DNA from: Escherichia coli
Lineage (GTDB): Bacteria > Pseudomonadota > Gammaproteobacteria > Enterobacterales > Enterobacteriaceae
Strand: one strand, 5' to 3'
NCBI RefSeq assembly: GCF_013122565.1
Contig: NZ_CP053258.1
DNA length: 64,000 bases
Positions within the stretch are counted from its first letter, which is position 1, and each line of letters begins with the position of its first letter. The position numbers and the translations under genes are program-made. Positions 3,303-60,391 of this stretch are shown here, piece after piece. Under the pieces are notes generated by a model, which worked only from the letters and a program-made list of their open reading frames with translations, was not told where the DNA came from and made no database searches.

Positions 3303-4880
3303 ATGACGGAAAACATTCATAAGCATCGCATCCTCATTCTGGACTTCGGTTCCCAGTATACTCAACTGGTTGCGCGCCGCGTGCGTGAGCTGGGCGTTTA
3401 CTGCGAACTGTGGGCGTGGGATGTGACAGAAGCACAAATTCGTGACTTCAATCCAAGCGGCATTATTCTTTCCGGCGGCCCGGAAAGCACCACCGAAGAA
3501 AACAGCCCGCGTGCGCCGCAGTATGTCTTTGAAGCAGGCGTACCGGTATTCGGCGTTTGCTATGGCATGCAGACCATGGCAATGCAGTTGGGCGGTCACG
3601 TTGAAGCCTCTAACGAACGTGAATTTGGCTACGCGCAGGTTGAAGTCGTAAACGACAGCGCACTGGTTCGCGGTATCGAAGATGCGCTGACCGCAGACGG
3701 TAAACCGCTGCTCGATGTCTGGATGAGCCACGGCGATAAAGTTACCGCTATCCCGTCCGACTTCGTCACCGTAGCCAGCACCGAAAGCTGCCCGTTTGCC
3801 ATTATGGCTAACGAAGAAAAACGCTTCTATGGCGTACAGTTCCACCCGGAAGTGACTCACACCCGCCAGGGTATGCGCATGCTGGAGCGTTTTGTGCGTG
3901 ATATCTGCCAGTGTGAAGCCCTGTGGACGCCAGCGAAAATTATCGACGATGCTGTAGCTCGCATCCGCGAGCAGGTAGGCGACGATAAAGTCATCCTCGG
4001 CCTCTCTGGTGGCGTGGATTCCTCCGTAACCGCAATGCTGCTGCACCGCGCTATCGGTAAAAATCTGACTTGCGTATTCGTCGACAACGGCCTGCTGCGT
4101 CTCAACGAAGCAGAGCAGGTTCTGGATATGTTTGGCGATCACTTTGGTCTGAACATTGTTCACGTTCCGGCAGAAGATCGCTTCCTGTCAGCGCTGGCTG
4201 GCGAAAACGATCCGGAAGCAAAACGTAAAATCATCGGTCGCGTTTTCGTTGAAGTATTCGATGAAGAAGCGCTGAAACTGGAAGACGTGAAGTGGCTGGC
4301 ACAGGGCACCATCTACCCTGACGTTATCGAATCTGCGGCGTCTGCAACCGGTAAAGCACACGTCATCAAATCTCACCACAACGTGGGCGGCCTGCCGAAA
4401 GAGATGAAGATGGGCCTGGTTGAACCGCTGAAAGAGCTGTTCAAAGACGAAGTGCGTAAGATTGGTCTGGAGCTGGGCCTGCCGTACGACATGCTGTACC
4501 GTCATCCGTTCCCGGGACCAGGCCTTGGCGTTCGTGTTCTGGGTGAAGTGAAGAAAGAGTACTGTGACCTGCTGCGCCGTGCTGACGCCATCTTCATTGA
4601 AGAACTGCGTAAAGCGGACCTGTACGACAAAGTCAGCCAGGCGTTCACCGTCTTCCTGCCAGTACGTTCCGTTGGCGTAATGGGCGATGGTCGTAAGTAT
4701 GACTGGGTTGTCTCTCTGCGTGCTGTCGAAACCATCGACTTTATGACCGCACACTGGGCGCATCTGCCGTACGATTTCCTCGGTCGCGTTTCCAACCGCA
4801 TTATCAATGAAGTGAACGGTATTTCTCGCGTGGTGTATGACATCAGCGGCAAGCCGCCAGCTACCATTGAGTGGGAATGA
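3303..4880 (+). CDS. guaA: GMP synthase (glutamine-hydrolysing)
   Basis: 525 aa; [41 protein letters not shown]...; glutamine amidotransferase domain plus ATP-pyrophosphatase SGGVDSS motif; 68-bp gap after guaB indicates an operon. Confidence 0.96.
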
Positions 4881-4904
4881 TTTGACCCTGCACTATGAAT
4901 GAAC

Positions 4905-4934
4905 AAAACCCTCTGTTACTACAGAGGGTTTTTT
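4905..4934. terminator. Rho-independent terminator between convergent guaA and yfgI
   Basis: aaaaccctctgttactacagagggtttttt: GC stem with A-run on one side and T-run on the other, so it could terminate in both directions. Confidence 0.75.
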
Positions 4935-4972
4935 ATCTTCAAGAATTATAGGCTTGAAGTTACTAACATCGA

Positions 4973-5512
4973 TTAATTAAACCAGCTGTCCGATTTGTTC
5001 TCTTCTGCTTTGCCCACGCTTTTCATCAGATCGCGACCGCCTTCAGTCATATTTCTGTTGGCGTCAGCTTCAGATTGCACCACATCGGTTTGCGCAGCTT
5101 TGTGCTTCAGTTCCTGATCGATAAATTCGTTTTCGCGCTTAACGCGGGCTTCTTCTTTCGCCAGCGCCAGTTTTTGTTTCTGAATCTCTAAGCTGCGTAG
5201 CTCATCTTCATAACTTTGATCGCGTTTTTTGTCCGCAGTGGCTTCGGCGTCCAGTTTATCCTGACGAGCTTTCTTATTTGCCGCTGCCGTTGCCGCTCTT
5301 TTGTTAGCGGCGGCCTGGGCATTTGCGCGACGTTGCTTCTCTTGCTGGATTTCCCTGTTGCGCTCCGCGACCCATTCGTCATGCTGCCTTTGCTCTTCAT
5401 TTTTACCTTGCTGTTCCGCTTCTGCGACAGCAGAGAGTTGATCCTGCAATGATGAGGCGATAGCCGGATAGCTTAAGGAGGCTAAGATGGCGCAAAGAAA
5501 AACTTTCTTCAT
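4973..5512 (-). CDS. yfgI: Secreted coiled-coil protein YfgI (charged, Ala/Lys/Glu-rich)
   Basis: 179 aa; N-terminal signal peptide MKKVFLCAILASLSYPAIASS followed by a low-complexity charged region; matches E. coli YfgI by position and sequence. Confidence 0.85.
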   Translation of the reverse strand: MKKVFLCAILASLSYPAIASSLQDQLSAVAEAEQQGKNEEQRQHDEWVAERNREIQQEKQRRANAQAAANKRAATAAANKKARQDKLDAEATADKKRDQSYEDELRSLEIQKQKLALAKEEARVKRENEFIDQELKHKAAQTDVVQSEADANRNMTEGGRDLMKSVGKAEENKSDSWFN

Positions 5513-5527
5513 GACTCCTCCTGATTA

Positions 5528-6046
5528 TTAGCTCTTTTCAGGACATTTGGTATTTGGCTGAATACGCGTTTCGTTATACGTCGTGGTAATAACAACGGCT
5601 AAACCTGTCGTAAACTGGCACTCTTTACCCACCTGGGTGGAGGTATACACTTTGGTGCCTTCCTTATACGTTAAAGAAACACCTTCCACTAAGGTTTTAT
5701 CATTCACCATAGAACCCGCTGCCGCGCCTACAGCTCCGCCGCCAACTGCACCTGCCGTCGTTCCGGAATTGCTGCCAGACCCGACGTTGTGGCCGATAAC
5801 ACCGCCAGCGACTGCGCCAATAAGCGCGCCGAAGGCTTGTGCGTTCCGTTTATTTTGGGAGTTGTCTACGGCAACTTTTGCGGGAAGAATGGAAATAATA
5901 TTAACGGTTTTAGTTTCTTGTTTGGTATTCAGTTGATCGGTTTGATAAACATCGGCGGCATGATCGTCAGCATTTGACTGGCATCCTGCCAGAGTGAATG
6001 ACGCTAACATTGCCACAGGCAGAAGACATTTTTTAAATTTCATCAC
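5528..6046 (-). CDS. yfgH: Glycine-zipper outer-membrane lipoprotein
   Basis: 172 aa; lipobox LAGC after the signal peptide; Gly-rich GxxxG repeats (GALIGAVAGGVIGHNVGSG...). Confidence 0.85.
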   Translation of the reverse strand: MMKFKKCLLPVAMLASFTLAGCQSNADDHAADVYQTDQLNTKQETKTVNIISILPAKVAVDNSQNKRNAQAFGALIGAVAGGVIGHNVGSGSNSGTTAGAVGGGAVGAAAGSMVNDKTLVEGVSLTYKEGTKVYTSTQVGKECQFTTGLAVVITTTYNETRIQPNTKCPEKS

Positions 6047-6356
6047 TATTCCTTGTTATACACATTACGAAAAATAAGACATTTAAGATCATCAAAAGAG
6101 GAAAGTAAATGTATTGCGTATAAAGGGATAGATTAAATTTATTAAAATTCACTCGGGGAATAATTTATAAAAATACATCATTACAACATATATATTAATT
6201 TTATATTTATTTCGCAGCCAAACAGGATAAACATCAGTCAGGACAAAGACGTAAAACTTAAGATGGAAGAATATCTGCCGCTTTGATAATCCCAAAGAGC
6301 AAAAGCATCCGACAGCGAAGTGCCGTTATGTTCTGTGAAAGTGGAGAAGGTAACCG

Positions 6357-6548
6357 CTAACGTTGTACCGGTGATTCGACGGAGAGTGTGGATTGCTGAG
6401 CTTCTTTTTTGCTCTGATGGTGCTGCCAGGCACCGACGGACGAGTAGATAAAACGGCCAAAGAAGAAGATAAAGCTGATGAGCAGTACGATACGGGTCAT
6501 GCGACTGTTAAATCGGTGTCGTTTTCGCATACTGGTTGCCTGACTCAC
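6357..6548 (-). CDS. yfgG: Small inner-membrane protein YfgG
   Basis: 63 aa; basic N-terminus and a single hydrophobic helix (IVLLISFIFFFGRFIY); lies in an AT-rich island. Confidence 0.75.
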   Translation of the reverse strand: MSQATSMRKRHRFNSRMTRIVLLISFIFFFGRFIYSSVGAWQHHQSKKEAQQSTLSVESPVQR

Positions 6549-6758
6549 AAAAGGTTCCTTGAAGTATGTCCCACGCTGTGGACGGTACTTACATTAAGGC
6601 ACAACAGGACAAAATGGTCAATTCTTCGTTATGTAAAAAAGCGTCAGCGGATACATATTTTAATGTTATGGAAGTTAATTTAATTATTTACAATGATGAT
6701 GTAATAATGATGAATTAACATGATAAACGTAATAATTCATTAATCAGGGTTATTTTGT

Positions 6759-6772
6759 TTGATATATATCAA
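6759..6772 (+). promoter_or_regulatory. FNR/CRP-family site (TTGAT-N4-ATCAA) upstream of pdeF
   Basis: Perfect palindrome ttgatatatatcaa about 130 bp upstream of the pdeF ATG; pdeF (yfgF) is reported to be anaerobically induced via FNR. Confidence 0.6.
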
Positions 6773-6899
6773 TTGGAACTTTCATATGACACTTAGAATC
6801 AATGCTCTCTATAGTGATGAATAATCATCATTCGAAGTCAGGTGGGATGCCTGTCTGAATACACCTCCTTCAGGATGTGGGGGATTCTGCTGAGCATCT

Positions 6900-9143
6900 A
6901 TGAAACTGAATGCAACTTATATAAAAATACGTGATAAATGGTGGGGGCTTCCGCTGTTCCTGCCTTCTTTAATCTTGCCCATTTTCGCCCACATTAATAC
7001 TTTCGCGCATATTTCTTCCGGTGAGGTTTTTCTCTTTTATCTGCCTCTGGCACTGATGATCAGCATGATGATGTTTTTCAGCTGGGCGGCATTGCCAGGG
7101 ATCGCCTTAGGGATTTTTGTCCGCAAATATGCAGAGCTTGGTTTTTACGAAACGCTCTCATTAACGGCTAATTTTATTATCATTATCATTCTCTGTTGGG
7201 GTGGTTACAGGGTCTTTACTCCCCGGCGTAACAACGTTTCACATGGTGATACCCGTTTAATTTCCCAGCGTATATTCTGGCAGATTGTGTTTCCTGCAAC
7301 GCTGTTTCTGATACTTTTTCAGTTTGCTGCGTTTGTAGGATTACTGGCGAGCAGAGAAAATCTGGTCGGTGTCATGCCTTTTAACCTCGGGACTTTAATC
7401 AATTATCAGGCCTTACTGGTGGGTAATCTGATCGGTGTCCCGCTGTGTTACTTCATCATTCGGGTAGTGCGAAATCCATTTTATTTACGTAGCTATTATT
7501 CGCAATTAAAACAGCAGGTTGATGTCAAAGTCACCAAAAAAGAGTTCGCACTCTGGCTACTGGCATTAGGTGCTTTATTGTTGCTGTTATGCATGCCGTT
7601 AAATGAAAAAAGCACAATTTTTAGCACCAATTATACCTTGTCATTATTGCTGCCCCTGATGATGTGGGGAGCGATGCGCTATGGTTATAAGCTGATTTCA
7701 CTGCTCTGGGCGGTCGTGTTGATGATCAGCATCCACAGCTATCAAAATTACATTCCCATTTATCCTGGCTATACCACGCAGCTGACCATAACCTCCTCCA
7801 GTTATCTGGTATTCTCTTTTATTGTCAATTATATGGCTGTATTGGCAACCCGTCAGAGAGCGGTAGTCAGACGCATTCAGCGGCTTGCGTATGTGGACCC
7901 GGTGGTTCATCTGCCAAATGTTCGCGCACTGAATCGCGCGTTGCGTGATGCCCCCTGGTCTGCGCTTTGTTATTTACGCATCCCTGGCATGGAAATGCTG
8001 GTTAAGAACTATGGCATCATGCTGCGGATTCAATACAAGCAAAAACTTTCTCACTGGCTGTCACCCTTACTGGAACCGGGTGAAGATGTTTATCAGCTTT
8101 CGGGTAACGATCTCGCGCTGCGACTGAATACAGAATCGCACCAGGAGCGCATTACCGCACTGGATAGCCATCTCAAGCAATTTCGTTTCTTTTGGGATGG
8201 CATGCCGATGCAACCGCAGATTGGCGTCAGTTACTGCTATGTGCGCTCGCCAGTGAATCATATCTACCTGCTGCTGGGAGAGCTAAATACGGTCGCCGAA
8301 CTTTCCATCGTGACCAACGCCCCGGAAAATATGCAGCGTCGCGGGGCAATGTATTTGCAACGCGAATTGAAAGATAAAGTCGCGATGATGAATCGACTAC
8401 AGCAGGCGCTGGAACACAACCATTTTTTCCTGATGGCCCAGCCGATTACCGGTATGCGTGGTGATGTTTACCATGAAATTCTTCTGCGCATGAAAGGTGA
8501 GAATGATGAACTGATCAGCCCCGATAGCTTCTTGCCGGTCGCGCACGAATTTGGTTTATCGTCGAGTATCGACATGTGGGTCATTGAGCATACGCTGCAA
8601 TTTATGGCTGAAAACAGAGCGAAGATGCCCGCTCACCGTTTTGCTATTAATCTGTCTCCAACCTCGGTATGTCAGGCTCGTTTTCCTGTTGAAGTCAGTC
8701 AGTTGCTGGCTAAATATCAGATTGAAGCGTGGCAACTTATTTTTGAAGTCACCGAAAGTAATGCTCTGACCAATGTTAAGCAGGCGCAAATCACCTTGCA
8801 GCATCTTCAGGAATTAGGCTGCCAGATTGCGATTGATGATTTCGGCACCGGCTACGCCAGCTATGCGCGGCTTAAAAATGTGAATGCCGATCTGCTTAAA
8901 ATTGACGGCAGTTTTATCCGCAATATTGTGTCAAATAGTCTGGATTATCAGATAGTGGCATCGATTTGCCACCTGGCGCGAATGAAGAAAATGCTGGTAG
9001 TGGCAGAGTACGTTGAAAACGAAGAGATCCGCGAGGCGGTGCTCTCTTTGGGGATCGATTATATGCAGGGTTATCTTATTGGTAAGCCGCAACCGTTAAT
9101 TGATACGCTGAATGAAATCGAACCCATTCGCGAAAGTGCCTGA
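6900..9143 (+). CDS. pdeF: Cyclic-di-GMP phosphodiesterase (MASE1 membrane domain, degenerate GGDEF, EAL domain)
   Basis: 747 aa; multi-helix hydrophobic N-terminus; C-terminal EAL-domain signatures (EVTE...DDFGTGYAS...KIDGSF); equals YfgF. Confidence 0.9.
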   Translation: MKLNATYIKIRDKWWGLPLFLPSLILPIFAHINTFAHISSGEVFLFYLPLALMISMMMFFSWAALPGIALGIFVRKYAELGFYETLSLTANFIIIIILCWGGYRVFTPRRNNVSHGDTRLISQRIFWQIVFPATLFLILFQFAAFVGLLASRENLVGVMPFNLGTLINYQALLVGNLIGVPLCYFIIRVVRNPFYLRSYYSQLKQQVDVKVTKKEFALWLLALGALLLLLCMPLNEKSTIFSTNYTLSLLLPLMMWGAMRYGYKLISLLWAVVLMISIHSYQNYIPIYPGYTTQLTITSSSYLVFSFIVNYMAVLATRQRAVVRRIQRLAYVDPVVHLPNVRALNRALRDAPWSALCYLRIPGMEMLVKNYGIMLRIQYKQKLSHWLSPLLEPGEDVYQLSGNDLALRLNTESHQERITALDSHLKQFRFFWDGMPMQPQIGVSYCYVRSPVNHIYLLLGELNTVAELSIVTNAPENMQRRGAMYLQRELKDKVAMMNRLQQALEHNHFFLMAQPITGMRGDVYHEILLRMKGENDELISPDSFLPVAHEFGLSSSIDMWVIEHTLQFMAENRAKMPAHRFAINLSPTSVCQARFPVEVSQLLAKYQIEAWQLIFEVTESNALTNVKQAQITLQHLQELGCQIAIDDFGTGYASYARLKNVNADLLKIDGSFIRNIVSNSLDYQIVASICHLARMKKMLVVAEYVENEEIREAVLSLGIDYMQGYLIGKPQPLIDTLNEIEPIRESA

Positions 9144-9149
9144 ATAATG

Positions 9150-9176
9150 CGGGCCGACATTTCTCGTCGGCCCGCA
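9150..9176. terminator. Hairpin between convergent pdeF and ppx (probable bidirectional terminator)
   Basis: gcgggccgacatttctcgtcggcccgc, a 9-bp GC-rich stem, in the 38-bp convergent gap. Confidence 0.55.
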
Positions 9177-9181
9177 AAGCA

Positions 9182-12794
<3,613 letters not shown>

Positions 12795-14721: not shown

Positions 14722-14965
14722 ACTGCTTTACACAACCTTTTTGCACGTCTTTTCCCCAGGCGCGCGGCGAAAGAAGACTTGTGCCAGGGCAAAGGTTAGT
14801 TTTCGGATGGAATAATCTTCTTTCATAACCATTTGAATATAAAATAACTTTATCTCAAACCGTTATCATTTTGACTAAAGTCAACGAAAATAATATTGCC
14901 GCCTTGAAGAAAGGAGGTATAATCCGTCGATTTTTTTTGTGGCTGCCCCTCAAAGGAGAAAGAGT

Positions 14966-44258: not shown

Positions 44259-44633
<375 letters not shown>

Positions 44634-44995
44634 TTATGAGAATAAATACTCATTTAAGAGTGAAAACATTTTGCCTGCAAATGATTATCAGGAAATATAA
44701 CATTATCGAAGTATTCAAATTAACAACTATTAAATAATATTAAACATTTTTAACGTAAACATTAAGAATATTCATCTTGTTATCTGTCTGTATTTTAACC
44801 AGAATTAAATAAGTATTAGATGCCGTATGAATATCTCGAAATGTTGCTGTGTATCACATACAAATCATCACCGCAGGACCATAGTATTTACATAAGGTTT
44901 GTCCCCCGGAGGTAGTCATCGCAGCAATCGAGTAAATTAGCTTCACCACGGTATATTGTTTCCGTAGAATACCCATAATTATAAGAGAGGTTGTT

Positions 44996-57485: not shown

Positions 57486-59765
57486 ATGGATGACCAGTTA
57501 AAACAAAGTGCACTTGATTTCCATGAATTTCCAGTTCCAGGGAAAATCCAGGTTTCTCCAACCAAGCCTCTGGCAACGCAGCGCGATCTGGCGCTGGCCT
57601 ACTCACCAGGCGTTGCCGCACCTTGTCTTGAAATCGAAAAAGACCCGTTAAAAGCCTACAAATATACCGCGCGCGGTAACCTGGTGGCGGTGATCTCTAA
57701 CGGTACGGCGGTGCTGGGGTTAGGCAACATTGGCGCGCTGGCAGGCAAACCGGTGATGGAAGGCAAGGGCGTTCTGTTTAAGAAATTCGCCGGGATTGAT
57801 GTATTTGACATTGAAGTCGATGAACTCGACCCGGACAAATTTATTGAAGTCGTCGCTGCGCTCGAACCGACCTTCGGCGGAATCAACCTCGAAGACATTA
57901 AAGCGCCAGAATGTTTCTATATTGAACAGAAACTGCGCGAGCGGATGAATATTCCGGTATTCCACGACGATCAGCACGGCACGGCAATCATCAGCACTGC
58001 CGCCATCCTCAACGGCTTGCGCGTGGTGGAGAAAAACATCTCCGACGTGCGGATGGTGGTTTCCGGCGCGGGTGCCGCAGCAATCGCCTGTATGAACCTG
58101 CTGGTCGCGCTGGGGCTGCAAAAACATAACATCGTGGTTTGCGATTCAAAAGGCGTTATCTATCAGGGCCGTGAGCCAAACATGGCGGAAACCAAAGCCG
58201 CATATGCGGTGGTGGATGACGGTAAACGTACCCTCGATGATGTAATTGAAGGTGCGGATATTTTCCTCGGCTGTTCCGGCCCGAAAGTGCTGACCCAGGA
58301 AATGGTGAAGAAAATGGCTCGGGCACCAATGATCCTGGCGCTGGCGAATCCGGAACCGGAAATTCTGCCGCCGCTGGCGAAAGAAGTGCGTCCGGATGCC
58401 ATCATTTGCACCGGTCGTTCTGACTATCCAAACCAGGTCAACAACGTCCTTTGCTTCCCGTTTATCTTCCGTGGCGCGCTGGACGTTGGCGCAACGGCTA
58501 TCAATGAAGAGATGAAACTGGCGGCAGTACGCGCGATTGCGGAACTGGCCCACGCCGAACAGAGCGAAGTGGTGGCTTCTGCGTATGGCGATCAGGATCT
58601 TAGCTTTGGCCCTGAATACATCATTCCAAAACCGTTCGATCCGCGCTTGATCGTTAAGATCGCTCCTGCGGTCGCGAAAGCGGCGATGGAGTCGGGCGTG
58701 GCGACGCGTCCGATTGCTGATTTCGACGTCTACATCGACAAGCTGACTGAGTTCGTTTACAAAACCAACCTGTTTATGAAGCCGATTTTCTCCCAGGCTC
58801 GCAAAGCGCCGAAGCGCGTAGTTCTGCCGGAAGGGGAAGAGGCGCGCGTTCTGCATGCCACTCAGGAACTGGTAACGCTGGGACTGGCGAAACCGATCCT
58901 TATCGGTCGTCCGAACGTGATCGAAATGCGCATTCAGAAACTGGGCTTGCAGATCAAAGCGGGCGTTGATTTTGAGATCGTCAATAACGAATCCGATCCG
59001 CGCTTTAAAGAGTACTGGACCGAATACTTCCAGATCATGAAGCGTCGCGGCGTCACTCAGGAACAGGCGCAGCGGGCGCTGATCAGTAACCCGACAGTGA
59101 TCGGCGCGATCATGGTTCAGCGTGGCGAAGCCGATGCAATGATTTGCGGTACGGTGGGTGATTATCATGAACATTTTAGCGTGGTGAAAAATGTCTTTGG
59201 TTATCGCGATGGCGTTCACACCGCAGGTGCCATGAACGCGCTGCTGCTGCCGAGTGGTAACACCTTTATTGCCGATACATATGTTAATGATGAACCGGAT
59301 GCAGAAGAGCTGGCGGAGATCACCTTGATGGCGGCAGAAACTGTCCGTCGTTTTGGTATTGAGCCGCGTGTTGCTCTGTTGTCGCACTCCAACTTTGGTT
59401 CTTCTGACTGCCCGTCGTCGAGCAAAATGCGTCAGGCGCTGGAACTGGTCAGGGATAGTGCGCCAGATCTGATGATTGATGGTGAAATGCACGGCGATGC
59501 AGCGCTGGTGGAAGCGATTCGCAATGACCGTATGCCGGACAGCCCTTTGAAAGGTTCCGCCAATATTCTGGTAATGCCAAACATGGAAGCTGCCCGCATT
59601 AGTTACAACTTACTGCGCGTTTCCAGCTCGGAAGGTGTGACTGTCGGTCCGGTGCTGATGGGCGTGGCGAAACCGGTTCACGTGTTAACGCCGATCGCAT
59701 CGGTACGTCGTATCGTCAACATGGTGGCGCTGGCCGTGGTTGAAGCGCAAACCCAACCGCTGTAA
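57486..59765 (+). CDS. maeB: NADP-dependent malic enzyme (malic enzyme fused to PTA-like domain)
   Basis: 759 aa; [35 protein letters not shown]... Confidence 0.95.
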
Positions 59766-60055
59766 TTCTTTTTTAACTCTCACGCTTACCCTGAATATTC
59801 AGGGTAAGCGGTTTAGCTGCAATATATTAGTAAAGCTTATTACTGAGTTTACGAATAATAAAAAAAGCAATATAAAATATCTCGATATTATTTTATTTAT
59901 ATTCATGCGTCGCATATGAAAGTTTATTCATAACAGTAAATATCTCTCCATTCTTAGTGATCTACCTCACCTTTTAAACGTGCTTGCCGAATTTTGTTAT
60001 TTACTCTGACGAAAAATTGTCACGATACACGAAAGTTTTTCACAGGCGGCGACTC

Positions 60056-60391
60056 ATGGATAAAGAACGCATCATTCAGGAATTTGTGCCCGGCAAACAG
60101 GTCACACTGGCGCATCTCATCGCGCATCCCGGCGAGGAACTGGCGAAGAAAATCGGCGTTCCGGATGCTGGCGCAATCGGCATTATGACGTTAACTCCTG
60201 GCGAAACGGCGATGATCGCCGGTGATTTAGCACTGAAAGCCGCCGATGTGCATATCGGTTTTCTCGACCGTTTTAGCGGCGCGCTGGTGATTTATGGCTC
60301 GGTGGGTGCAGTAGAAGAAGCGTTATCACAAACCGTCAGTGGTTTAGGTCGCTTATTAAATTATACGCTTTGTGAAATGACCAAAAGTTAA
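60056..60391 (+). CDS. eutS: Ethanolamine-utilisation microcompartment shell protein (permuted BMC domain)
   Basis: ORF trimmed to [34 protein letters not shown]... (111 aa). Confidence 0.9.

Follow-up and report, generated by a model that had tools for sequence, protein, structure and literature searches.

Does the AT-rich DNA around yfgG in Escherichia coli connect the loss of oxygen to the turnover of cyclic-di-GMP? We addressed this question in a window of 64,000 nucleotides of the E. coli chromosome, at least 99% identical to K-12-type genomes, where guaB-guaA are followed by yfgI-yfgH and yfgG on the minus strand and then by pdeF (yfgF), ppx and ppk (Table 1). A preliminary description of this DNA had proposed that two intergenic stretches form a regulatory hotspot. 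Gene boundaries, taken from the list of open reading frames and from the RefSeq annotation of a near-identical E. coli record, show that 6047-6356 and 6549-6899 are exactly these two stretches. guaA and pdeF had been named as the flanks of the island. While pdeF does adjoin it, guaA is not a direct neighbour because yfgI and yfgH intervene. The experimental data on FNR dependence, FNR occupancy, H-NS occupancy and the effect of hns stpA come from the work of others; the sequence features, the statistics and the cross-genus conservation come from our analysis.

Table 1. Features of the yfgI-to-pdeF region and their positions in the 64,000-nucleotide window
Feature	Position	Strand	GC	Description and basis
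guaA	3303-4880		0.544	
yfgI	4973-5512	-		DUF5384 protein; ORF and RefSeq annotation
yfgH	5528-6046	-		Glycine-zipper outer-membrane lipoprotein; ORF and RefSeq annotation
yfgG/yfgH intergenic stretch	6047-6356		0.319	AT-rich; end of yfgG to start of yfgH
yfgG	6357-6548	-	0.495	Divergent from pdeF; ORF and RefSeq annotation
yfgG/pdeF control region	6549-6899		0.345	AT-rich; divergent
50-aa ORF	6566-6718	+		PGAP 'hypothetical protein', present in RefSeq records; overlaps yfgG promoter
yfgG promoter	6579-6621	-		-35 TTGACC (6621..6616); -10 CTTAAT (6598..6593); TSS 6579
FNR box	6759-6772	+		TTGATATATATCAA; perfect consensus, centre 6765.5
-10 hexamer of pdeF	6794-6799	+		TAGAAT, FNR-dependent promoter; sequence, and -10 in the published account as cited
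pdeF 5' untranslated leader	6807-6899	+		About 93 nt from putative start; alignments, conservation profile, folding
Leader 5' hairpin	6813-6832	+		Predicted fold
Leader HP1	6836-6856	+		Conserved block/hairpin; GGAUGC at 6845-6850
Leader HP2	6864-6883	+		CAGGAUG at 6871-6877
Leader GCAUCU	6894-6899	+		Invariant; adjoins AUG
pdeF (yfgF)	6900-9143	+	0.462	MASE1-GGDEF-EAL cyclic-di-GMP phosphodiesterase; ORF and RefSeq annotation

AT-rich composition and H-NS occupancy

Both stretches are as AT-rich as had been described, since the GC content of the window averages 0.523, and the two A/T-rich strings quoted for them were found in the sequence. A sliding calculation over 200 bp, which had been suggested as a check, returned minima of 0.235 (start 6021) and 0.25 (start 6631), about 5 standard deviations below the window mean (sd 0.054). 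Clusters of 200-bp segments below 0.33 GC occur at four places in the 64 kb, two of which are these intergenic stretches. Moreover, 6 of the 21 A/T-only runs of at least 12 nt lie within 6028-6929, and the longest run of the window (25 nt, 6188-6212) is inside 6047-6356. A GC content of 0.32-0.35 over hundreds of base pairs, with A/T tracts, is a composition of the H-NS type.

The proposal that such tracts are H-NS targets agrees with published ChIP-chip data, in which H-NS regions cover both stretches under anaerobic (2626274-2628408, window 5446-7580) and aerobic conditions (2624400-2628963, window 4891-9454; Myers et al. 2013 Table S3, PMC3688515). We checked the map between genome and window coordinates on three published FNR motifs. 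The region also carries an 'HNS' flag in genomic SELEX (Shimada et al. 2014). The tables of Myers et al. 2013 are mutually inconsistent on the nucleoid-protein signal at the FNR site, which is 'None' in Table S6 and a spanning H-NS region in Table S3 (PMC3688515).

The palindrome is an FNR site

An exact TTGAT-N4-ATCAA palindrome had been reported upstream of pdeF. We located it, as TTGATATATATCAA, at the expected position, and the window has no second exact match. Could it have arisen by chance in AT-rich DNA, with a base composition that is ordinary for promoters and carries no special regulatory load? The central ATATAT of the palindrome is of low complexity, and E. coli intergenic DNA is AT-rich in general. 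With 0.09 exact matches expected in the window, at least one occurred in 7 of 100 whole-window shuffles. However, when the 351-bp AT-rich intergenic region was shuffled with its dinucleotides preserved, an exact site appeared in only 65 of 20000 shuffles (0.3%), and both stretches are among just four spots below 33% GC in the 64 kb. The half-sites and their spacing to the -10 hexamer are kept across four genera while the flanks diverge, and FNR occupies the site in ChIP data (PMC3688515). A chance origin has next to no probability in our judgement and is already refuted by the conservation and the published ChIP data.

The palindrome had been assigned to the FNR/CRP arrangement without distinction. 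Both families of sites share an inverted-repeat architecture, and the 16-mer on the same dyad fits the CRP consensus TGTGA-N6-TCACA at 7 of 10 positions. The FNR part of the assignment stands, with a match to the FNR consensus at 10 of 10 positions, whereas the CRP part does not. TTGA in FNR sites and GTGA in CRP sites are the established discriminating half-site positions of the FNR/CRP family, and here both arms carry the FNR bases. The core conserved among orthologues is likewise TTGA...TCAA. In addition, both FNR occupancy by ChIP (PMC3688515) and FNR-dependent expression (Lacey et al. 2010, as summarised in PMC3718329) have been published. That the palindrome is a CRP site, and that pdeF responds to carbon source instead of oxygen, is therefore extremely improbable.

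In the genome-wide data of Myers et al. 2013, TTGATATATATCAA is listed as a top-scoring predicted FNR site (2627088, PWM score 16.08), and a ChIP-chip/ChIP-seq peak of FNR occurs at yfgF/yfgG (2627146; PMC3688515). The comparison with published FNR ChIP data, which had been recommended, places a peak on this motif. A similar box, with a perfect or near-perfect TTGAT-N4-ATCAA and an A/T-rich spacer, is found in the yfiD (grcA) promoter (TTGATTTAAATCAA; PWM score 17.25 versus 16.08 for pdeF, PMC3688515). The two promoters differ in that yfiD has two FNR sites and strong FNR dependence in the wild type, whereas the pdeF promoter has one site, with damping by H-NS.

A class II pdeF promoter coated by H-NS

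According to the published description (Lacey, Partridge and Green 2010, cited in PMC3718329), yfgF is expressed anaerobically from an FNR promoter of class II, whose box lies at -41.5 and whose -10 hexamer is TAGAAT. In the window, TAGAAT lies 28.5 bp from the box centre, which would place the transcription start at about 6807 and the box at -41.5. The two coincide in locus, 14-bp box, hexamer and distance, and we found no difference from the E. coli K-12 promoter as described (Lacey 2010, Microbiology 156:2873, summarised in PMC3718329). The palindrome region is thus already known as the yfgF FNR promoter itself. The original observation was correct but not new, because the FNR promoter (2010), the FNR peak and the H-NS region are all published. 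Occupancy of 6549-6899 by FNR, sigma70, sigmaS and H-NS is on record, Myers et al. assigned the FNR peak to yfgF as the target (Myers et al. 2013, PMC3688515), and a RegulonDB-style curation has yfgF activated by FNR in anaerobiosis. Literature searches combining pdeF and FNR returned no match. The function of PdeF as a cyclic-di-GMP phosphodiesterase was taken from PMC3718329.

Although FNR binds the yfgF promoter, an fnr mutant in glucose minimal medium expressed yfgF no differently from the wild type (Myers 2013 Table S9, PMC3688515). FNR activation of yfgF is therefore conditional. Lacey et al. are said to have found it highest in stationary phase and at 28 C. In an hns stpA mutant, the average of the FNR peak increased from 0.35 to 1.68, and only in this mutant was yfgF expression oxygen-dependent (ratio 0.23; Myers et al. 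2013, PMC3688515). We infer that H-NS acts directly at this promoter.

An alternative sigma70 promoter, ATGACA-18-TATAGT (6786-6815), has been proposed from genomic SELEX (Shimada et al. 2014). A generic sigma70 scan of our sequence picked this same promoter and missed the FNR-dependent -10 hexamer, and the total of promoter-like sites was lower than in shuffles. Inspection by eye of the intergenic region and the leader for Fur, Zur, NsrR and NarL sites gave only partial look-alikes, from about 7/11 to 10/19 positions.

Taken together, we consider it very probable that yfgG and pdeF are divergently controlled from 6549-6899, which is coated by H-NS, and that the box is the FNR site of the class II pdeF promoter. 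In the mechanism that we propose, dimeric [4Fe-4S]-FNR would bind 6759-6772 in the absence of oxygen, 41.5 bp upstream of the start, and recruit RNA polymerase in the class II arrangement, so that the PdeF phosphodiesterase is switched on. H-NS, together with StpA, would coat the whole yfgI-pdeF segment of lower GC, most of all its two AT-rich intergenic stretches. This coating would lower FNR occupancy and keep the FNR-bound pdeF promoter nearly silent in glucose minimal medium. The idea of a hotspot joining anaerobiosis to cyclic-di-GMP turnover is thereby supported by the published FNR promoter (as cited in PMC3718329), by the ChIP and hns stpA data and by conservation.

The divergent yfgG gene

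The hexamers of the yfgG promoter were reported by Shimada et al. 2014 and we located them in the window sequence. Its start corresponds to 2627275 in the genome, with binding of sigmaS-RNAP (PMC4447067), and a strong anaerobic sigma70 ChIP-seq peak lies at 2627279 (window 6575; Myers et al. 2013, PMC3688515). A weak terminator-like hairpin follows the 3' end of yfgG on the minus strand (6325-6310). The three small proteins of the island had been called poorly characterised. They are less obscure than that, as YfgG is required for nickel and cobalt tolerance and YfgH is a lipoprotein that stabilises the outer membrane.

Since the region is divergent, the FNR site could serve mainly yfgG, or both genes, rather than pdeF alone. 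In the wild type, expression of yfgG differs with and without oxygen (ratio 0.45; Myers 2013 Table S12, PMC3688515), and its promoter carries the dominant sigma70 and sigmaS signal of the region. We consider a main or shared role in yfgG control improbable for several reasons. The box centre precedes the yfgG start by about 186 bp, a distance to which no position known for FNR activation comes close, and the spacing of the box is fixed to the pdeF -10 hexamer and not to yfgG. Furthermore, yfgG has no entry in the table of FNR-dependent operons of Myers et al. 2013, who name yfgF as the target (PMC3688515).

The 50-aa ORF that overlaps the yfgG promoter was also considered as a small-protein gene and rejected. 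Nucleotide differences among Escherichia species are distributed equally among its three codon positions, its start codon is gone in Escherichia sp. E1V33 and its stop codon is gone in E. whittamii; it is probably not a gene.

Conservation of the promoter and origin of the island

Of 5426 complete E. coli genomes, 5392 carry the promoter with an identity of 95% or more. Outside the species, the gene order yfgG-pdeF-ppx is kept in all four genera examined (Escherichia, Enterobacter, Phytobacter and Kluyvera), where the box lies 124-143 nt from the ATG. In all 14 orthologous loci with upstream DNA the half-sites keep a constant distance to the pdeF start codon and the box has no more than two mismatches. 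The same holds for 80 of 81 metagenomic variants of the promoter, and nearly all of these boxes have at most one mismatch. Across 95 unique orthologous promoters TTGA, TCAA and TA.AAT are invariant and the N4 spacer is variable. The genome scan by protein pattern retrieved no Salmonella, Citrobacter or Klebsiella by name; clades of these types are probably represented among the metagenomic variants.

These comparisons bear on whether the AT-rich island is horizontally acquired DNA, with xenogeneic silencing as the main story and the FNR site as a secondary feature. The segment from yfgI to pdeF has a GC content of 0.449 against 0.523 for the window, and it coincides with the aerobic H-NS region (PMC3688515). 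yfgHI, which the literature regards as an operon, is missing at this position in Enterobacter, Phytobacter and Kluyvera, adjoins yfgG only in Escherichia and one other enterobacterium, and has no orthologue in S. Typhimurium. By contrast, both the gene order yfgG-pdeF-ppx and the promoter are shared between genera, and the core is therefore ancestral in these enterobacteria; yfgHI alone looks mobile. Acquisition as the main story is a possibility that we find doubtful, and it complements the FNR- and H-NS-controlled pdeF promoter rather than replacing it. Within this arrangement, 6047-6356 lies inside the published H-NS-bound segment and is the region upstream of a patchily distributed operon, presumably the yfgHI promoter region.

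A conserved leader as a candidate for post-transcriptional control

The leader of pdeF is more conserved than the encoded protein, and 6836-6899 is nearly invariant between genera. This element, with its GGA hairpins, appears to have no description in the papers and databases that we searched. Its two GGA motifs (6845-6847 and 6873-6875) are about 28 nt apart, an arrangement expected of CsrA targets in having at least two GGA within dimer-bridging distance and at least one in a hairpin loop. All 95 unique leaders have a GGA that lies between the first block and the ribosome-binding site, versus 43% of shuffles, and in all 61 variants it is presented in a hairpin of at least 4 bp, versus 19% of shuffles. 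No GGA overlaps the weak SD sequence. In 58 of 77 leaders the bases immediately 5' of the AUG fall within a predicted GGAUGC:GCAUCU helix, which shows no covariation because both strands are invariant.

The fold of the whole E. coli leader is no more stable than shuffles (z = -0.74). With RNAalifold, a sequence-based alignment of 50 leaders yielded the invariant hairpin alone and showed no covariation. The register of HP2 shifts between clades, and we therefore analysed it with a custom script. A scan of 4800-7200 against Rfam 15 at a permissive threshold detected no relevant family, its only match, to a human lncRNA model (E = 0.76), being due to chance.

The pdeF leader resembles known CsrA-controlled leaders, namely those of glgC, ymdA and the GGDEF genes ycdT and ydeH, in its two GGA about 28 nt apart. 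CAGGAUG, presented in a short hairpin loop, recalls the CsrB repeats and the SELEX consensus RUACARGGAUGU, and a helix is predicted to sequester the ribosome-binding region as in ymdA. The invariance of 20 nt in the pdeF leader goes beyond what CsrA recognition alone needs. The cultures of the CsrA studies were probably aerobic, and pdeF would then be poorly expressed. The literature searched for pdeF, yfgF or STM2503 together with CsrA holds no direct link, and yfgF/pdeF has no entry in the supplements of the E. coli (CLIP-seq and integrated transcriptomics) and Salmonella CsrA studies.

With an anatomy that fits translational control of the CsrA or helix-switch type, the leader is a candidate for regulation after transcription, for which CsrA is a possible factor. 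In a tentative model, which we think less likely to hold than to fail, the GGAUGC:GCAUCU helix would close the ribosome-binding region, the second hairpin would display a GGA, CsrA or a small RNA at the GGA would open or lock the helix, and PdeF would need both FNR and Csr signals.

Implications for cyclic-di-GMP turnover

The yfgF/yfgG site is one of the H-NS/StpA-limited FNR sites listed by Myers et al. (2013, PLoS Genet 9:e1003565). It is absent from the discussion in their main text, and the case was pieced together here from five supplementary tables. Combined, these genome-wide tables indicate that H-NS and StpA gate the FNR promoter of pdeF. Such gating could explain why FNR dependence was seen in one study and not in another.

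The link between FNR and PdeF has been established since 2010, so finding it again from sequence adds no biology. Through this link, E. coli lowers cyclic-di-GMP on loss of oxygen and thereby adjusts motility and its cell surface. If the model of the leader is true, PdeF synthesis would need an anaerobic signal, acting through FNR on transcription, and a carbon or growth-state signal, acting through Csr on translation. The leader, if real as a control element, would be a second checkpoint on an anaerobic cyclic-di-GMP enzyme.

Gene organization and base composition

We defined the locus from the list of open reading frames and from megablast comparison with 5,426 complete E. coli genomes; in 5,401 of them, matches of 95-100% identity span 80% or more of 4900-7000. 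Gene order was taken from the RefSeq annotation of one matching record.

Features of the yfgG/pdeF region (window coordinates)
Feature	Position	Strand	Source
guaB	ends 3234	+	RefSeq annotation of matching record
guaA	3303-4880	+	RefSeq annotation of matching record
yfgI	4973-5512	-	RefSeq annotation of matching record
yfgH	5528-6046	-	RefSeq annotation of matching record
yfgG	6357-6548	-	RefSeq annotation of matching record
PGAP 'hypothetical protein', 50 aa	6566-6718	+	RefSeq annotation
yfgG promoter TTGACC-17-CTTAAT	6621-6593	-	genomic SELEX
FNR box TTGATATATATCAA	6759-6772, centre 6765.5	+	exact TTGAT-N4-ATCAA match
-10 TAGAAT	6794-6799	+	sequence; published -10
pdeF, formerly yfgF	6900-9143	+	RefSeq annotation of matching record
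ppx, ppk	downstream of pdeF	-	RefSeq annotation of matching record

The two AT-rich stretches in the preliminary description are exactly the yfgG-yfgH (6047-6356) and yfgG-pdeF (6549-6899) intergenic regions. Their boundaries and composition stand as described, but guaA is not the immediate neighbour, since yfgI and yfgH lie between. GC content in the two stretches is 0.319 and 0.345, respectively, whereas the window averages 0.523, guaA 0.544 and pdeF 0.462, and sliding 200-bp windows reach minima of 0.235 and 0.25, more than 5 standard deviations under the window mean. Only four clusters fall below 0.33 GC in the 64 kb, two of them here, and 6 of the 21 A/T-only runs of at least 12 nt lie within 6028-6929, including the longest (25 nt, 6188-6212). 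The only other two clusters are the ypfM/yffB (~44520-44920, minimum 0.225) and eutS-maeB (~59740-60060, minimum 0.265) intergenic regions, the former carrying an 'HNS' flag in a genomic SELEX table.

We scanned one genome per species with a protein pattern and recovered 16 orthologous PdeF loci (57-97% identical), which come from Escherichia species, Enterobacter asburiae, two Phytobacter, several Kluyvera and one further enterobacterium. The order yfgG-pdeF-ppx is kept in every genus examined. The pair yfgH-yfgI adjoins yfgG only in Escherichia and lies at a distance in the further enterobacterium; the guaA-yfgG interval (window 4881-6356) holds yfgI-yfgH in Escherichia, whereas in Enterobacter asburiae it holds an MFS transporter and a LysR-type regulator. 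From this synteny and the promoter footprint across genera, we conclude that yfgG and pdeF share an ancestral control region and that 6047-6356 is part of a variable insert. The variability between guaA and yfgG, set against the constancy of yfgG-pdeF-ppx, further suggests that yfgHI and the AT-rich region upstream form a mobile or replaceable islet. A horizontal origin is plausible for yfgHI and would stand alongside the main explanation by FNR and nucleoid proteins. Published work regards yfgHI as an operon, with an orthologue in S. Typhi that SdiA regulates and none in S. Typhimurium, where the pair is missing; YfgH has been reported as a lipoprotein that stabilises the outer membrane, and nickel and cobalt tolerance requires YfgG.

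The palindrome is the FNR box of the pdeF promoter

The palindrome noticed upstream of pdeF is indeed an exact TTGAT-N4-ATCAA and the sole one in the window, where 0.09 are expected; when the 351-bp AT-rich region was shuffled 20,000 times with dinucleotides preserved, only 65 shuffles contained an exact site. It is the published FNR box of this promoter: according to PMC3718329, which cites Lacey, Partridge and Green (2010), the E. coli yfgF promoter has a box TTGAT--ATCAA at -41.5 and a -10 TAGAAT. The TAGAAT found here sets +1 near 6807 and hence the box centre at -41.5. FNR is curated as a yfgF activator in anaerobiosis (curation paper). Genomic SELEX proposed another yfgF promoter, ATGACA-18-TATAGT, flagged 'HNS'.

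An FNR-like box with 0 or 1 mismatch precedes the ATG by 124-143 nt at all 14 orthologous loci for which upstream DNA is available; its half-sites are kept while the N4 spacer differs (ATAT, TTAA, GTGC, ATGC, TCAT, TCAC, GTAT). When these promoters are aligned, TTGA, TCAA and TA.AAT stand out as islands of identity amid diverged sequence. Scanning metagenome contigs with a DNA pattern anchored on the pdeF leader added 120 loci; among the 81 unique promoter variants that extend far enough upstream, 80 have the box 66-88 nt upstream of the leader block. TTGA, TCAA and T-A-.-A-A-T are invariant over 95 unique sequences, and in 5,392 of 5,426 E. coli genomes the 96 bp around the box share at least 95% identity. 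This conservation across genera rules out that the palindrome arose by chance. A CRP site is likewise excluded, as the CRP consensus is matched at only 7 of 10 positions, the discriminating positions carry the FNR bases and FNR ChIP data at the site count against it.

These data come from Myers et al. 2013 (PMC3688515), where the yfgF/yfgG locus is absent from the main text and appears in supplementary tables. We derived a coordinate map (K-12 coordinate = 2633854 - window coordinate), accurate within 0.5 bp on each of three published FNR motifs in the window (guaB/xseA, upp/purM and yfgF/yfgG). The first two, TTGATCTCGCTCAC on the minus strand (1607-1620) and TTGACTTTAGTCAA (14871-14884), also have FNR ChIP peaks in that study. 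For yfgF/yfgG, Table S5 reports an FNR ChIP-chip/ChIP-seq peak at K-12 2627146, and Table S6 the motif TTGATATATATCAA at 2627088 with a PWM score of 16.08, close to yfiD (17.25), the top among the Table S6 rows listed. The H-NS ChIP-chip regions of Table S3, 2626274-2628408 (anaerobic) and 2624400-2628963 (aerobic), map to 5446-7580 and 4891-9454, the latter approximating the entire lower-GC yfgI-pdeF segment (GC 0.449). The FNR peak averages 0.35 in the wild type versus 1.68 in hns stpA, a significant difference (Table S7). Expression shows no fnr-dependent change in glucose minimal medium, with yfgF as estimated target (Table S9), and yfgF is oxygen-responsive only in the hns stpA strain (ratio 0.23, anaerobic higher; Table S11). 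Combined, the published tables say that FNR binds the pdeF promoter and that H-NS/StpA lower FNR occupancy and mask output in glucose minimal medium, in agreement with the proposed hotspot for FNR and nucleoid proteins. The tables disagree on one point: Table S6 gives 'None' for nucleoid-protein overlap at 2627088 (window 6765), whereas the Table S3 H-NS regions span the site in both growth conditions.

The FNR box could instead act on yfgG, which is oxygen-responsive (ratio 0.45, Myers Table S12). This is unlikely, with a minor role possible, as about 186 bp separate the box from the start site of yfgG, and the box stays in register with the pdeF -10. That start site, 2627275 (window 6579), belongs to a published sigmaS-RNAP-bound region, and a strong anaerobic sigma70 peak has been published at 2627279 (window 6575). 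Upstream of the yfgG promoter (~6652-6692) we observed a conserved inverted repeat AACAT-N6-ATGTT (ACATATTTTAATGT in E. coli, ACATTAATTAATGT in Kluyvera) followed by a conserved TATTTAC, which may be a regulator site for yfgG, the nickel/cobalt tolerance gene. PGAP annotates the 50-aa frame overlapping the yfgG promoter in virtually every E. coli RefSeq genome; its substitutions are even across codon positions and sister species have lost its start or its stop codon, making it probably a spurious gene call.

A conserved block in the pdeF leader

In the alignment of protein-retrieved orthologues, the most conserved non-coding block lies in the 5' leader, not at the FNR box: AGYCAGGUNGGAUGCCUGYCU (6836-6856), together with GAGCAUCUAUGA around the start codon. 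Positions 6836-6899 are almost invariant in Escherichia, Enterobacter, Phytobacter and Kluyvera, compared with 57-63% PdeF identity between genera. The first block can fold into a hairpin of 5-7 bp whose loop displays GGAU; being invariant, this hairpin shows no covariation. At least one GGA lies between the two blocks in 95 of 95 unique leaders versus 43% of shuffles. In all 61 unique variants of the inter-block segment, a contiguous hairpin of at least 4 bp can form with the GGA in its loop, versus 19% of shuffles (43% of GGA-containing ones), although shuffles overstate significance since the leaders are related. This second hairpin occurs with 32 different stem sequences, including compensated pairs (CCUGCA/UGCGGG versus CCUACA/UGUGGG), and its E. 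coli loop reads CAGGAUG (6871-6877), which is both the repeat motif of CsrB and the core of the SELEX consensus for CsrA, RUACARGGAUGU.

GGAUGC (6845-6850) has its complement in GCAUCU (6894-6899), directly before the AUG, and the predicted long-range helix appears in the minimum-free-energy fold of E. coli and of 58 of 77 unique leaders (median pair probability 0.95). It shows no covariation, since neither strand varies and the search pattern fixed both in the metagenome set. Such a helix would cover the weak Shine-Dalgarno region. Whole-leader fold stability is ordinary compared with shuffles (z = -0.74), and Rfam returned no match to the leader. In the first 25 nt of the leader, E. coli has an 8-bp hairpin (GUGAUGAA...UCAUCAU, 6813-6832) and Kluyvera an unrelated CCGCG...CGCGG hairpin at the same position; this 5' stem-loop may be structurally conserved and stabilise the mRNA.

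These features make it likely that the leader holds a post-transcriptional element, for which CsrA is a possible, tentatively proposed ligand. pdeF/yfgF has no entry in the supplementary files consulted for two CsrA transcriptomics studies (including CLIP-seq), an absence of little weight because the cultures were probably aerobic. That 20 nt are invariant points to further constraints, for example the helix or a small-RNA partner.

Conclusions

The observation is confirmed and its interpretation supported, for an element that promoter genetics and ChIP data have already described in detail. The leader (6836-6899), a candidate CsrA or riboregulatory element, appears to be the only item undescribed in the literature searched, and merits a simple experiment.
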